A stretch of 64,000 nt of DNA. Origin: Escherichia phage vB_EcoM_EC001. Positions 3,443 through 64,000 of this stretch are shown here, piece after piece; the stretch's first letter is position 1; each line of letters starts with the position of its first letter. A model generated the notes under the pieces. That model had not been told where the DNA came from, searched no databases, and was given only the letters and a program-made list of their open reading frames with translations. The DNA lies in sequence record MN445185.1; one strand, written 5' to 3'. Made by a program: the position numbers and the translations under genes.

Positions 3443-4162
3443 ATGACCTATCCTAAAATTCTGCCTGTTTTAACGCCCACCGTTGTTGTTGGGACGGACT
3501 TAGAGACCCTGGCTTTACGTCCAGATGCCTACATCTTAACGTTGGCAAACGTGGCATTCGATGTTCCGACAATGAAAATGATCGGTTCATGTTACCACAA
3601 AATCGACCCCAATGATGCAAAAGCAAAAGAAATCTTCTACATCGATCCACAAACGGTCGGTTATTGGGAAGGTAAAGGCGACCCCGAATACGCACCGAGC
3701 GAGAAAGCACGTATTGAAGCGTTTTCTGGGACCACACCACTGCCAGAAGCACTGTGGGCGGCCAAAAAATGGTTGGATGATCTGGGCAACGTGAAAATGG
3801 TTATCACCATGCGCGGTCCCGATTTCGATGCTCCAATTCTGATGAACGCATTTGCACAGTGCGATATCCCGCCGGGCAAGTACCGCAAGTTTTCTATTTT
3901 GGACTCTGACCGGACTGCAGAACGTATTGCATATGCGTTTGGCTTGGAACCTAACTGGCACGCAGAAGCCCACCACTGGACCCGTGGCAAAGAAGCGTAC
4001 GAGCATAACGCTAACTTTGATGCTGCGAAGGAAGCGTATTCTACGGCACGCATCTATCATTTGGCCCTGGTCGCGCGTACGTACGGCTTCGAACGCATGT
4101 TAGAAGCCCACCGCGAAATGTGCACAGGTGAATACATTCCACCGCAGTTGCGAGGAGAATAA
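3443..4162 (+). CDS. DEDDh-family 3'-5' exonuclease (DnaQ-like), putative
   Basis: Exo I-like VVVGTDLETLAL, Exo II-like GPDFDAPIL, Exo III-like HNANFDAAKEAY; motif-level only. Confidence 0.5.
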   Translation: MTYPKILPVLTPTVVVGTDLETLALRPDAYILTLANVAFDVPTMKMIGSCYHKIDPNDAKAKEIFYIDPQTVGYWEGKGDPEYAPSEKARIEAFSGTTPLPEALWAAKKWLDDLGNVKMVITMRGPDFDAPILMNAFAQCDIPPGKYRKFSILDSDRTAERIAYAFGLEPNWHAEAHHWTRGKEAYEHNANFDAAKEAYSTARIYHLALVARTYGFERMLEAHREMCTGEYIPPQLRGE

Positions 4163-5676
4163 TGAAAGACGTCGACGTAGCGGTTATTTATACCGATGGT
4201 AGTCATACTGAGTCCCCGAAAGGTTCGGGGGCTGGTATTCATGGTTATTTATTCAACAACGGAGATTTGGAAGACAGTCAGGCTTATAGCCATCCGGGTG
4301 TTTCAGAACGGATTACCACTGTTGGATACAAAAAAGTGCCGCAGGATGTGAAGTGTCCGGAGTTGCCGGACACCGTTCAATTTGTCGACGCCGTTATTCC
4401 CGTTCCGAAAGAGTTCTACTCAGATGTGGGCGAGTTAATCGCCTTCATCACGTTGTTTGAGAACGCACCCTTCCGCGCGAAGAACTATATTATCTACGTG
4501 GATGCCAGTTATGTTGTAAACACTTTTAACGAGTGGATAGACGGCTGGCATAAACGTGGTTGGGTTCGTGCTGACGGTACTCCGCTGGCGAACAAAGAAC
4601 TTATTGTTCGTATCTGGGAAATCAAACAGCAGATGAAAAAAGAAGGACGGGGTGTTAAGGTTATCAAAATCAAAGGACACTCCGGCCACTACGGTAACGA
4701 CCGGGCGGACGAATTGGCTAGAAAAGGTTCAGCTATCACAGCGACCAACGACGGCGTTCCATATCAGCCGTACTGGTCGAAGGATGAGTTGCCTGCATCC
4801 GCGGAACCCGAGCCCATCGCCGCTGGGATGAACCTTGCGGCATATCCGCCGATTTGTACGGTTAAATATTGCTATCCGTTGGTGAACGAGGACCATCCTA
4901 CTGTAAAAGTGAAAGATGAAACTTTCTATTACATGTTTGGTGGCAACCATGCAAAGAACAAGGACGACTTGGTGTTTATTGGGAAAATGATTCCTGATGC
5001 ACACTTTTCCGTAATGTTCACTAAACAACCGTGGGATAACATCTACACGATTGTAAACAACCACGCCGCCCTGGCATGGAAAGATACACCGAAGATGCGG
5101 CAGTATGATCCAATCGGCGTTGTTAACAATGAGTTCGTTAAACGTAAGAAGTTCGTTGACGTGGCAGGTGATGGATTACCAGCAGACAAGATGCATTTCA
5201 GTGGAGAAGATTCCAACGTCTGGTTCTTTGAAGACCTGGCCATCTCCAGAATGCTTCGCCCACCCTTATTGTCGTACCGTGCGCTGGATATTCGTGACGA
5301 ACTCGCTACAACGTTGCGTGATGTTCTGCATCAGGAAAAGGGTTATGTCTTAAACGATATTACCGACTTGCTATTCGACGACAAAGGTAAACCTGTCAAG
5401 GAATACTACCGCAGCGTCGATAAGTCAATAACGTTAAAGATTGACTTTCCGATGGGTAAACGACCTGTCTCGGTTATTTTGACGCGTGGTATCGATATTC
5501 CATCGCGTACGGAAATCAACCGTATTAAAGAACCGGAAGGCCGTTATTACATCGCGGTGTGTCGTCCTGAAAAATACTACATCCGTTACTTCTTAATCTA
5601 TATCGGTAAAGAGTATCATGGGTTGTGGTGTGCGTATTACGCAAACCGTCGCATACTGCGAGAAGAAGAGGTGTAA
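4162..5676 (+). CDS. RNase HI-like domain fused to ~280-aa C-terminal domain of unknown function
   Basis: TDGS, GELIAFI, DASYVV, WIDGWHKRGW and KGHSGHYGNDRADELARKG match the E. coli RNase HI catalytic motifs (from memory); start overlaps upstream stop (TAATG). Confidence 0.7.
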   Translation: MKDVDVAVIYTDGSHTESPKGSGAGIHGYLFNNGDLEDSQAYSHPGVSERITTVGYKKVPQDVKCPELPDTVQFVDAVIPVPKEFYSDVGELIAFITLFENAPFRAKNYIIYVDASYVVNTFNEWIDGWHKRGWVRADGTPLANKELIVRIWEIKQQMKKEGRGVKVIKIKGHSGHYGNDRADELARKGSAITATNDGVPYQPYWSKDELPASAEPEPIAAGMNLAAYPPICTVKYCYPLVNEDHPTVKVKDETFYYMFGGNHAKNKDDLVFIGKMIPDAHFSVMFTKQPWDNIYTIVNNHAALAWKDTPKMRQYDPIGVVNNEFVKRKKFVDVAGDGLPADKMHFSGEDSNVWFFEDLAISRMLRPPLLSYRALDIRDELATTLRDVLHQEKGYVLNDITDLLFDDKGKPVKEYYRSVDKSITLKIDFPMGKRPVSVILTRGIDIPSRTEINRIKEPEGRYYIAVCRPEKYYIRYFLIYIGKEYHGLWCAYYANRRILREEEV

Positions 5677-5677
5677 C

Positions 5678-6418
5678 ATGTTGCGAGTCGTGAGTGAATC
5701 GCTCACGCTCCACACACAAAGTCTGATTAACTGTGTGGAGCAATACGGATGGATGTCATGGATGGCAACGAACCGTGAGTTCGGTGCTGCGCCCATGGAA
5801 GATTACGACGTGTTGTACAAGTGGGGATTTGAAGCGGCTTGTGATGTTGTGGCAGAGCTGGTTACTGAAACAATTGCGCGTTACAATGCAAGATGTGATG
5901 AACCGATGCCTAAACAAGTCCCGCCGCAAATACCTCCGCTACCGACAATCGATCGTGAGCAGTGTCGAATCTGGACAATGGAAGAGTTGTACGACGAACA
6001 CGTTAGAATGCTGAAACCGAACGAGCTAATAACCGGTGCGTTGAACTGGTTCTTACATCGTTTCTGGACAGAGTTGGTCGATGTGGCGGGTGACGAAGAT
6101 AATTGTTCTCAGGTTATTTGGTACGATCGAGCGATGTTTCATCGCAGTCTTAAAGATCGCAGTCTCTGCAACCTGTATATTGTTGACCCGTGTGAAGACA
6201 TTGTAAGGGTGGCAGAAGGTAACTCTTATTCGGACTTGGTGATGCCTGTGGTAGAAAAACCGATGGGTATTTTCCTGCAGGGAGACGCTTGGGTTTTAAC
6301 GGATGATATCTCGGGCTACCTGCTGGACCCGGATGACATTCACTCGGACGAACCTGACACCATCGAGTATTTTCACTTTACAGAACAGGCAGCACGCTTC
6401 TTGCATCTCTTAAAGTAA
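5678..6418 (+). CDS. hypothetical protein (246 aa)
   Basis: ATG at 5678 with SD GAAGAGG, 1 nt after upstream stop; track ORF from 5618 overlaps the preceding gene. Confidence 0.6.
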   Translation: MLRVVSESLTLHTQSLINCVEQYGWMSWMATNREFGAAPMEDYDVLYKWGFEAACDVVAELVTETIARYNARCDEPMPKQVPPQIPPLPTIDREQCRIWTMEELYDEHVRMLKPNELITGALNWFLHRFWTELVDVAGDEDNCSQVIWYDRAMFHRSLKDRSLCNLYIVDPCEDIVRVAEGNSYSDLVMPVVEKPMGIFLQGDAWVLTDDISGYLLDPDDIHSDEPDTIEYFHFTEQAARFLHLLK

Positions 6419-61573: not shown

Positions 61574-62707
61574 ATGATGAACTATGAACGTAAGCACGCG
61601 TGGCAAGAAAAGCTACGCACGGGGCAGATACATTCTGCCCAACAAGTGAAGATGTGGGTGCTGCCGCACGGCGTCATCTGCGAAACAGTCCAGGTCGGAG
61701 GATTACCTATTCTTCGAAATGGTAAATACGATTCGATGAACACGGTACTCGCACGCTTGCTGGCCGATGCAGGCATAATGGGTACCGTGATTTTATATTC
61801 AACCGCAACGATTCCTCAGAACCTTTCTCGCTGGTTAACACATTGGCTTTCCAATGACCCTAGCGAGGACGATCCTTGGCTACGTTCGATGACAGTGACA
61901 ACAATGGGTCAACGGCCGACGAAACCCCTCCCATTCCAGGTCAATGTAATTGAACCAGCTATTCTGGAAGCGGGTGAAGTGTTTGAAGCAATCAAACATC
62001 GATCTCGCGATGTTAGCATCAGTCAGTTTCTTATCGAAGCGAATGATGTGACTTACCGGCTGGAGCCTGTACGACGTATGGACGCTCGTATCGTCGACTG
62101 CACAGAGTTTGGGTATGTCTTGCGCACACAGGGCAACCACACGTTCCTGGCATCGATGCTTTCTCGCCGCGTGCAGGGACAATTAGCACACTACAAAGTG
62201 TCCCCTGCTGACCTCGTCGGTACCGACGTTAAGGTCGAATACACAATGTTTACCGAAGGGAATAGACTGTGTAATTTTAAGTCTCCGGTAGTCTATCGGA
62301 GTAAGGCACTTGATGCCTTAGGCGACCAGAATGTCCCGACATACGATGGCCCCTATCCGTTTAAATCGCAAGCATCTGCAAACCGTGCGCTCCTTACGGT
62401 AACTCGGTGTAAACGCGCAGCGATCACACTGACCGACGGGGAAATCTATGGTAAGGACACTGAGTCTGACGCAAAACTCTTTTCGTTCCGGCGTGGTGTA
62501 AAACCTGGATTGTATGCCGCAACGTTTGAAAAGGGGGATGACGTCGAGTTCTGGCAGTTCGACAGTGATTTTGCGGTAGATGCAATAGACCCAGAAGCGT
62601 TAGTGAGTGTCATCACAGACCAAATCTTTTACGCGACGGGTATGAGCCTGCTGGAAATCTTTTTAATGTACGATGCCAGATTACCTTCACAGTCAGTCAA
62701 AACGTAA
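61574..62707 (+). CDS. hypothetical protein (377 aa)
   Basis: Long ORF with SD GAAGGAG upstream. Confidence 0.6.
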   Translation: MMNYERKHAWQEKLRTGQIHSAQQVKMWVLPHGVICETVQVGGLPILRNGKYDSMNTVLARLLADAGIMGTVILYSTATIPQNLSRWLTHWLSNDPSEDDPWLRSMTVTTMGQRPTKPLPFQVNVIEPAILEAGEVFEAIKHRSRDVSISQFLIEANDVTYRLEPVRRMDARIVDCTEFGYVLRTQGNHTFLASMLSRRVQGQLAHYKVSPADLVGTDVKVEYTMFTEGNRLCNFKSPVVYRSKALDALGDQNVPTYDGPYPFKSQASANRALLTVTRCKRAAITLTDGEIYGKDTESDAKLFSFRRGVKPGLYAATFEKGDDVEFWQFDSDFAVDAIDPEALVSVITDQIFYATGMSLLEIFLMYDARLPSQSVKT

Positions 62708-62717
62708 GGAGCCTCCT

Positions 62718-63227
62718 ATGTTTACTGCGCCAACCGTGCAGGTGGGGCAAGGTCTTAACCTGGCGGTACACGACCAGCGGTTAATCGACCTCTGCGACAC
62801 AAGCATAATTACTGCGATGATGGACCATAACCCTTTAGGTGACTACGGAAATACCAGCGAGATTTTGGCTGTTGCTGCCGTCCTCCGTCGTATTTACGGT
62901 CAAATAACCATCGTAGATCTCTGTAACTTCATTGACAACCACAGAGATTTAACTAAAGGGTTGGTCGCACTTACTCAAGATGGTGTGTCAAGTTTTGACA
63001 GTTCTCTTGGTAATTTCCTAGACATCGGTTCCGGGTTCGACTCCGGGCTAATGTTCATCACTCGTGAACGCTACGTCGCCGTCTGGGAATTTCTGCAACG
63101 CATGGGTGTGCATGTTCCTGCAAAGATCATGCATTACCAAACTTACGACCTGAATATTTTCGGGGAGCCAGGGTTATGGATAAAACCAGTACACCTTGGC
63201 CTTGATGGCTATACCATCAAGTGTTAA
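62718..63227 (+). CDS. hypothetical protein (169 aa)
   Basis: ATG at 62718 with SD AAGGAGC; track ORF from 62673 overlaps upstream gene. Confidence 0.55.
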   Translation: MFTAPTVQVGQGLNLAVHDQRLIDLCDTSIITAMMDHNPLGDYGNTSEILAVAAVLRRIYGQITIVDLCNFIDNHRDLTKGLVALTQDGVSSFDSSLGNFLDIGSGFDSGLMFITRERYVAVWEFLQRMGVHVPAKIMHYQTYDLNIFGEPGLWIKPVHLGLDGYTIKC

Positions 63228-63233
63228 GTCACT

Positions 63234-63285
63234 AGGCGTACTCTCTTCGGGGAGTACGCCAATCTTATTTTTTTTGTTTTTTTAA
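63234..63285 (+). terminator. rho-independent terminator
   Basis: GGCGTACTC-TCTTCGG-GGAGTACGCC hairpin followed by long T-tract. Confidence 0.8.
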
Positions 63286-63289
63286 CCAT

Positions 63290-64000
63290 CTGATTAAAGA
63301 GGTCTAGGAAACACCAGAAAACGATTAAGTGGTCTGGATGTAGGGTAGCTCATTTTTGATAGTTTATCGTTTTCTAGGGTCAATTACGTGCGTTTTAGAG
63401 GGGGTCTTGCATCGAGTCGGTGAATTTATTTTTGTCGGGGCGAGGAAATTCAGGGAATGGGGATTCAGGATTGTATGTTTTTTAACCAGTTATTAAAAAC
63501 GCTCTAGAAAGCGCTAGAACGAGATTTATACCTGACCCAGTACACTTGGGTTCCCCCTACCGGAAAATCGCGCCAGCGGGCCGCTGAGAGCGCGAGAGAG
63601 CCATTCCCGTTTCGGTTCCGGGACGACGGTCGCGGCCGGCGACGACGATCACACGTTGGGTAGCACTTCGTGCCATGTCTGGGTGAAAACTGGATCGTTC
63701 TGTAACCGACACACACTGTCGGTTACTTACGAGTTCTTTGGGTTGTTTAACTCACTCTAAAATCCCCCTTAGGGGATAATTTAATCTAATTCTCAAAATT
63801 TCTTTTTAAAACAATCACTTAGATTGTTTTTTAGATCGATCCTGTGGATCGGGTCGAAGACCCTTTCCTTATACGCGTGCGCGTGCGCACACCCGTATCC
63901 TCCAGGATCTTTTAAAATATATAATAATATTAAATATAATAATACCTTTAGGTATTATATTTAATTATTATAATTATTTATATAAATAAATATATTAATA
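63290..64000. other. ~710-bp structured non-coding region: hairpins with ACAC loops, GC-rich island, alternating CG tract, terminal AT-rich block
   Basis: No credible ORF; perfect inverted repeat GTAACCGACA-CACAC-TGTCGGTTAC near 63700; CGATCC-TGT-GGATCG; ACGCGTGCGCGTGCGCACAC; final ~100 bp almost pure A/T with ATAATACC-TTTA-GGTATTAT. Confidence 0.6.

Follow-up and report, generated by a model that had tools for sequence, protein, structure and literature searches.

A stretch of about 710 bp that closes the window, the whole 64,000 nucleotides of DNA analysed here, was singled out in a preliminary description as lacking a credible gene, which raises the question of what such a stretch is for. 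The DNA derives from an SPN3US-like jumbo phage of the genus Seoulvirus, within the nucleus-forming Chimalliviridae; over its last kilobases the window shares 98-99% identity with Salmonella phage SPN3US and relatives of that phage. The stretch (63290-64000) is gene-free as described, and it does not end at position 64000: in records that hold the region internally the ORF-free gap is about 1780 bp long (4029-5807 of the record designated L001). The 710 bp form its left part, and about 1 kb follows beyond the window end, which splits an A/T-only block in the middle. The gap begins where a 169/184-aa gene (window 62673/62718-63227) stops and is bordered on the right by a gene for an HslV-like peptidase, beyond which lie first tRNA genes and after them the genes for DNA and RNA polymerases. 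It sits between this block and the packaging and structural genes, with the large terminase gene 3.5 kb upstream. In SPN3US-like giant phages this gap is a conserved non-coding control locus of 1.8 kb, of which the stretch makes up the left half; the locus has several parts, with both RNA-level and DNA-level elements, from which its function is inferred.

The open reading frames of the region span 34-70 aa only, and the longest, a 70-aa frame on the minus strand, has no Pfam match and carries 13-nt and 1-nt indels in relatives. Six-frame translated similarity is alike in all frames on both strands. In SPAsTU (L003 2572-3189) and pEa_SNUABM_29 (L004 1100-2256) the upstream gene and the conserved locus are separated by one or two additional genes, of which the window has no trace, and no remnants of the extra genes of other lineages were found in the region. 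A frameshifted gene retained by relatives, which the preliminary description had named as the finding that would speak against it, was looked for; the indels, the lack of a Pfam match, the similarity in all frames and the lack of remnants rule out a decayed or frameshifted gene. That the stretch is such a gene, or a neutral spacer with palindromes arisen by chance, is hardly credible. In favour of this explanation, some records carry small annotated ORFs at this place and close relatives are 93-97% identical in the region against 98-99% in the flanking genes; yet the stretch is conserved over four genera in which a neighbouring protein is just 48-60% identical, and it holds invariant blocks and compensatory changes with no conserved frame.

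Four genera, Seoulvirus, Erskinevirus, Machinavirus and Wellingtonvirus, have conserved this non-coding locus, which is also found in metagenomic contigs. The comparison set consisted of 15 loci and pEa_SNUABM_11, together with six metagenomic relatives from two IMG/VR scans, which with two conserved strings as queries returned these six true relatives only, all of the same genera. In distant blastn comparisons the gap is 72% identical over 89% in SPAsTU and 67% identical over 83% in pEa_SNUABM_29, and conserved islands of it are matched in Erskinevirus, Machinavirus and Wellingtonvirus phages of Erwinia. Among close relatives the segments 63645-63740 and 63800-64000 scarcely vary, and variation is greatest in a T-run, a G-rich unit and part of a GC island, all described below.

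The left part of the gap reads as a set of repeated modules in which a T-rich motif is followed by hairpins and then by a hairpin with a T-tract. At its left end stands the intrinsic terminator of the upstream 169/184-aa gene (63235-63285, plus strand), composed of the hairpin GGCGTACTCTCTTCGGGGAGTACGCC (63235-63260) and a long T-run; a terminator scan also scored it in the homologous L001 4036-4061. The T-run (window 63265-63285; SPN3US 239914-239955) differs in length among close relatives, and a g.239933insT change is among those listed for SPN3US mutants (Reilly et al. 2020; PMC7411985). The first copy of a promoter-like repeat, TTTTTTTAACCA-N14-TCTAGG, follows at 63277-63308 on the plus strand. 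Its core TTTTTTAACCA, which had been noticed as repeated, has exact copies at 63278 and 63478 and no other exact copy in the 64-kb window; the spacing to TCTAG is the same in both, and copy 1 is present in Seoulvirus relatives. Next comes a G-rich non-coding unit (63303-63434, plus strand) with a GC skew of +0.3 to +0.5, closed by the hairpin CATCGAGTCGGTG (63410-63422) and, after it, AATTTATTTTT, a terminator-like site at L001 4212-4224. This unit is conserved within Seoulvirus only, and no other part varies as much among close relatives.

The second copy (TTTTTTAACCA-N14-TCTAG, 63478) belongs to a promoter-like motif, TTGTAyryTTTTTAACCA-N14-YCTRG (63470-63507, plus strand, aligned in alignment A1), which doubles as an inverted repeat of a T-run and an A-run. 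Of the 15 loci scanned, 13 have it at 380-480 bp upstream of the A/T block, and it is kept in other genera as TTGTACACTTTTTAACCA, with YCTRG at a fixed distance; TTTTTAACCA, a variant of the T-rich motif, is conserved upstream of the A/T block. The SPN3US genome holds 11 exact copies of a similar motif, TTTTTTAC[AG]-N14-T[AG]TG, all intergenic and on the plus strand (291, 5952, 15473, 72635, 94185, 161436, 165052, 168841, 176689, 181012 and 222601), which is probably a second promoter class. One exact copy of this class lies just right of the A/T block (SPN3US 291), outside the window, and within the region only the variant TTTTTTAACCA-N14-TCTAG occurs, which resembles it. The T-rich motifs are putative promoters, judged by their sequence. 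The copies of the TTTTTTAC motif in SPN3US often stand directly 3' of a terminator hairpin.

A further promoter-like element, AAAATTTC-TTTTTAAAACAATCACTTA (63796-63821, plus strand), is A/T-rich and near-invariant, with invariant or near-invariant columns in A1; its flanks are akin to those of early promoters and its core is different. The early-promoter-like motif itself, of the class served by the virion RNA polymerase, is GATA[GT]ATATTA(Y)CTTAGGTGAG. It has 14 exact copies in the SPN3US genome (L016-L020), for example at 4428, 23811, 72685, 94240 and 223278, all on the plus strand and each with an A/T-rich upstream part, and none of them (0/14) falls within the gap. Host sigma-70-like sites number 4 against 2.4 expected, which is not significant, and transcription in this group of phages is reported to be independent of the host polymerase. 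Of the promoter cluster that had been suggested, conserved promoter-like motifs are what remains; the absence of canonical early motifs here leads to the rejection of the locus, or of the A/T block, as a cluster of early promoters.

Terminator-like sites, defined as a hairpin followed by T residues, are enriched in the gap (10 against 2.0 +/- 1.6 in shuffles), and 8 of the 10 are on the plus strand. Two short hairpins at 63837-63863 (plus strand), CGATCC-TGT-GGATCG, which had been described earlier and spans 63837-63851, and GGGTC-GAA-GACCC, change in sequence from lineage to lineage (as seen in A1), yet a hairpin is retained at this position; a terminator-like site is scored here at L001 4654-4666. 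The left part is predicted to form two or three short non-coding plus-strand transcription units with putative promoters.

One stretch is a candidate structured RNA of about 290 nt (63503-63790, plus strand), outlined by RNAalifold, a covariance model and the terminator scan. Its 5' part contains a hairpin at 63503-63518, an invariant hairpin ACCCAG-TACAC-TTGGGT (63535-63551), which is the TACAC-loop hairpin pointed out before, and a GC island at 63552-63643. The GC-rich character of this island is as had been stated, 63550-63649 being 69% GC against 38-41% in the flanks. The 3' part contains a 4-bp hairpin (63663-63673) and an extended 14-bp hairpin (63695-63732) built around the previously seen 10-bp inverted repeat with GTAACCGACA at 63702-63711, the loop CACAC and TGTCGGTTAC at 63717-63726. 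The candidate RNA ends with the hairpin ATCCCC-CTTA-GGGGAT (63762-63777) and a U-rich tail, a terminator-like site at L001 4565-4580. The SPN3US reference record (JN641803/NC_027402) lacks 57 bp across its two ends (window 63743-63799), judged against the window, MET_P1_082_240 and phage 1252, and the missing bases include this last hairpin.

Covariance across related genomes, which had been proposed as a check, shows that hairpins at homologous positions covary in four genera. Folding was done group-wise and with a covariance model, as a 13-lineage MAFFT alignment misaligned the hairpins for RNAalifold. For Seoulvirus plus Erskinevirus, RNAalifold predicted 57 pairs, 19 of them compensatory, and for Machinavirus plus Wellingtonvirus 39 pairs, of which 14 are compensatory. 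The covariance model R1, which covers the 4-bp hairpin and the 10-bp hairpin lengthened by four pairs (63643-63736), finds every lineage. In the corresponding alignment, A8, 95.6% of cells are paired and 16 of the 18 pairs have compensatory changes on both sides, a result reached by none of 500 shuffles and compared with 28-47% in slid controls; A8 is fitted to the model and hence biased toward structure, and the margin is nonetheless large. Covariation of hairpins and local palindromes, taken alone, does not separate an RNA from a DNA cruciform, or one strand from the other. The plus strand is favoured because the invariant hairpin at 63535-63551 has its G.U pairs there and because of the orientation of the T-tracts. 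The structured non-coding RNA that had been listed among the candidate functions is supported by hairpins that covary in four genera and by the enrichment of hairpin-plus-T sites, mostly on the plus strand.

None of this matches a described family. Rfam 15 covariance models, among them those of GOLLD, ROOL, group I and II introns, RNase P and tmRNA, gave chance-level scores of 9-17 bits in window 62500-64000, against gathering scores of 42-204, and over the full gap of five loci (L001, L005, L010, L027 and L032) they found tRNAs only. ARAGORN called neither a tmRNA nor an additional tRNA in the gap. Two more matches to the tRNA model, at L001 7815-7884 and 7887-7958 (39.9 and 31.9 bits), lie beside tRNA-Asn; they are unannotated and are not called by ARAGORN.

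To the right of the A/T block, and already outside the window, the T-rich promoter-like motif recurs at a distance of 60-80 bp; after it come about 830 nt that are conserved, G+C-rich and free of ORFs. The 3' domain of this sequence folds, in a sequence-only alignment, into 57 pairs in 11 helices, long-range ones included; 94.4% of cells pair and 21 pairs are compensatory (0 of 500 shuffles; slid controls 38-48%), and many G.U pairs fall on the plus strand. This right-hand element is a genuine multi-helix structured plus-strand RNA. It has no Rfam match at E <= 1, and although it is like GOLLD and ROOL in being a large multi-helix phage RNA near tRNA genes, its conserved motifs differ and membership of either family is not supported. 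Within Wellingtonvirus, a gene for an HNH endonuclease is present or absent inside this region (L010 2395-2904 in Kwan; L036 189-700 on the reverse-complement strand; absent in L032 and L037-L039). A group I intron was rejected as its explanation, there being no Rfam match; just upstream of the gene an int-alpA RNA match scores 31 bits, below the cut-off of 35.8. Taken together, the locus adds candidate structured RNAs, including a large multi-domain RNA with solid covariation, that stand outside the Rfam families, for a phage group whose RNA biology is only starting to be mapped.

Could the whole locus then be purely transcriptional? It would be a cluster of small and large non-coding RNA genes, in which the A/T block serves as punctuation or as an AU-rich part of a transcript, be it a strong terminator, an insulator or a polymerase entry site between the late and the middle/early units. 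The promoter-like motifs, covarying hairpins and enriched plus-strand terminator-like sites throughout the gap all agree with this, as does the right flank of the A/T block, which itself scores as a terminator-like site. Related giant phages, moreover, express short sRNA units that run from promoter to terminator, one of them just upstream of a tRNA (PMC11512511). The RNA part of the locus is this known kind of feature, as in phiKZ and 201phi2-1, in a new form: the units are likewise short, intergenic and non-coding, and theirs include one beside a tRNA gene, but there is no sequence relationship and the units predicted here are stacked in one 1.8-kb locus. As an account of the whole locus, a purely transcriptional function is nevertheless unlikely, if by no means far-fetched, and what speaks against it is the A/T block with its surroundings.

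The window holds the left two thirds of this block (63910-64000, no strand assigned), with A/T-only runs at 63910-63944 and 63953-64000; the full block measures about 100-135 bp (L001 4706-4838). An inverted repeat had been reported within it and is present as ATAATACC-TTTA-GGTATTAT around 63939-63958. Apart from the T-run of the upstream terminator, the block is the sole stretch of >=40 bp with <=10% GC in the 240-kb SPN3US genome. On its left lies a conserved flank (63862-63915, no strand assigned), which comprises CCTTTCCTTAT, the tract ACGCGTGCGCGTGCGCACAC (63873-63892), correctly described before as alternating purine-pyrimidine, and TnTCCTnCAGGATCTTTT (63896-63913), the longest invariant run of the gap, at the left edge of the block. 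The columns of this flank are invariant in A1 and A2 (12 lineages) and nearly without variation among close relatives, an island of the distant blastn matches coincides with it, and TCCTnCAGGATCTTTT is an invariant sequence of the locus. The far side is closed by TTAAGATC, a (CG)n tract and GTGATCCTTATTAAGAGATCGTGATCGG, and the block is bracketed by GATCTTTTAA and TTAA(AA)GATC, with alternating CG tracts on both sides and GTGATCCTTATTAMGAGATCGTGATCGG on the right. The ordinary terminators of the genome do without an A/T-only palindrome of 120 bp, and the invariant 18-nt flank, the (CG)n tracts and a cluster of GATC sites are DNA-level features which transcription alone leaves unexplained.

The interior of the block behaves in the opposite manner to its borders: its sequence and length vary, even among close relatives, and it remains A/T-only. 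One or two small palindromes are kept, the arms of the inner hairpins covary (ACC/GGT, TCCC/GGGA, ATC/GAT), and folding gives a self-complementarity above that of shuffles in six lineages (z -1.8 to -4.4). As a whole the block is imperfectly palindromic, and its borders are the most conserved sequence of the gap and (CG)n tracts; covariation of the palindrome would also fit the site of a dimeric protein of any function. Another role that depends on a cruciform, such as a hotspot of recombination or resolution in recombination-dependent replication, acted on by the phage's SbcCD-like nuclease, or a site that anchors or organises DNA in the phage nucleus, could draw on this folding potential, which is found in all lineages tested, and on the phage annotation, which has an SbcD-like palindrome-specific endonuclease subunit and an SMC-like protein. 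It is an improbable explanation and leaves both the conserved asymmetric flanks and the co-oriented putative promoters unaccounted for. A protelomerase target resembling N15 telRL, i.e. a long perfect palindrome centred on TACGCGCGTA, was rejected: phiEaH2 carries ATTATACGCGCGTA, the symmetry stops after about 10-12 bp, and no protelomerase is annotated among the SPN3US features.

The 300 bp around the A/T block contain eight GATC sites, which makes this the densest window of the genome (mean 0.61; next-best 4). Most lineages keep 5-8 sites, and the clade of pEa_SNUABM_4, ChrisDB and Caitlin retains only 2-3. SPN3US gp161 is an adenine methylase of the D12/Dam family (PF02086, E = 2.5e-52), which from its family would be expected to recognise GATC. 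Such a cluster invites comparison with the pac site of P1, where GATC-containing repeats likewise flank a central region near the terminase gene. Terminase would here recognise the flanks and cut in or near the A/T block for headful packaging, or set a preferred end, with GATC methylation as a modulator. GATC clusters on both sides of the central region and a large terminase gene only 3.5 kb away suit this reading, and at least eight GenBank records begin within about 100 bp of the A/T block, several of them inside it. These starts are not decisive because some are conventional, because some records are corrupted and because an A/T-only palindrome is a typical break point of assemblies: the Erwinia phage records take their bp 1 from an alignment to the family (PMC6256631), and genomes of the phiKZ group are described as circular permutations whose ends are arbitrary (PMC12676376). 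GenBank record ends were therefore rejected as evidence for physical termini. A packaging site or preferred end, a function that had also been suggested earlier, is distinctly unlikely: the locus has one TGATC[AG] hexamer in place of the several of a P1-type site, and its centre is a 120-bp A/T palindrome, for which pac has no need.

The corrupted records concern the SPFM phages. In LR535906 (L033 1-2000) and other SPFM records the first kilobases consist of 60-nt blocks in reversed order that are not reverse-complemented, which is an artefact of deposit and not biology; the SPFM matches are fragmented because 60-nt FASTA lines were deposited in the reverse order.

The architecture of the locus suggests, at a little under an even chance, that the A/T block and its surroundings are a transcription-activated replication origin flanked by non-coding RNA genes. 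The reasons lie in the unique A/T-only palindrome with its invariant flanks and variable interior, in the co-oriented promoter-like motifs and the G-rich structured leader upstream, and in the GATC cluster combined with a phage enzyme of the Dam family and a position beside the replication genes. Conserved promoter-like motifs stand 90 and 430 bp upstream of the block on the plus strand, directed toward it, and the plus strand upstream is G-rich, with a GC skew as high as +0.51. The A/T block would be the DNA-unwinding element of an origin of lytic replication. Rightward transcription would begin at the conserved putative promoters 90 to 430 bp upstream and cross the G-rich, hairpin-rich leader, and an R-loop would then open or prime the A/T block, by a logic like that of the T7 primary origin, T4 oriF/oriG and ColE1 RNA II. 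The conserved flanks may be the binding sites of a putative phage initiator, and the phage's own Dam-family methylase could exert control through the GATC cluster. The RNAs on either side are possibly separate non-coding RNA genes that merely share the locus. A more specific version, in which a lytic origin is fired by phage RNA polymerase and gated by Dam methylation and the flanking RNAs, especially that of about 830 nt, form an undescribed class of large RNA, is possible and rather doubtful.

An origin had also been among the earlier suggestions, and it is the best fit for the A/T block, judged by its architecture (uniqueness, flanks, palindrome and GATC sites); an origin of the oriC type it is not. 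DnaA boxes (TTATNCACA) have six matches with <=1 mismatch in 8.8 kb against 7.0 expected and form no cluster, with one match in the gap and none near the A/T block. The 13-mers of oriC type (GATCTnTTnTTTT) have no match with <=2 mismatches at the A/T block, and no obvious iteron array is seen at the locus. A DnaA-dependent origin of the oriC type was thus rejected, although the GATC cluster typical of it is present. Cumulative GC skew was discarded as a marker, since in SPN3US it is monotonic and tracks gene orientation, with no origin signal. The low GATC count in the clade of pEa_SNUABM_4, ChrisDB and Caitlin and the missing homologue in Derbicusvirus also weigh against the origin.

In its logic, though not in its sequence, the origin-like element is similar to viral origins already known. 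The T7 primary origin, T4 oriF(uvsY) and oriG(34) and ColE1 RNA II are transcription-activated origins. They share with the present locus a phage-type promoter (here putative) shortly upstream of an A/T-rich unwinding region, a structured and partly G-rich leader that points at the block and the absence of host DnaA boxes. There is no sequence similarity, however, the block here is far longer, A/T-only and palindromic, and the polymerases would be multisubunit phage RNA polymerases. Herpesvirus oriS and oriL have an A/T-rich imperfect palindrome at their centre, flanked by G+C-containing initiator boxes. The A/T-rich palindromic centre, the conserved G+C-containing flanks and the difficulty of assembly recur in the phage locus, though the virus lineage is unrelated and the two flanks do not repeat a single box symmetrically. 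As in E. coli oriC and P1 oriR, a GATC cluster adjoins an A/T-rich region, in phages that infect Dam-positive enterobacteria and carry their own Dam-family methylase, but unlike these origins the locus has neither a cluster of DnaA boxes nor GATCTnTTnTTTT 13-mers. The phage nucleus, the protein shell within which these phages replicate, is presumed to keep host proteins out.

In the literature searched, neither an origin nor a pac site is described for chimalliviruses, nor is the locus itself. It offers nucleus-forming jumbo phages a candidate for these missing signals: a single, sharply bounded origin candidate, unique in the genome and conserved across genera, which makes the question directly testable and could also be useful for the engineering of such phages.

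Derbicusvirus relatives (CR5 and Phobos) have no recognisable homologue of the locus. At the equivalent position they hold about 130 bp of 32-35% GC (L030 4900-5140 in CR5; L031 4930-5150 in Phobos) with the short repeats GATAA, GAATGAATG and TTAGTTA, followed by an early-type promoter, and this stretch may be an analogous element.
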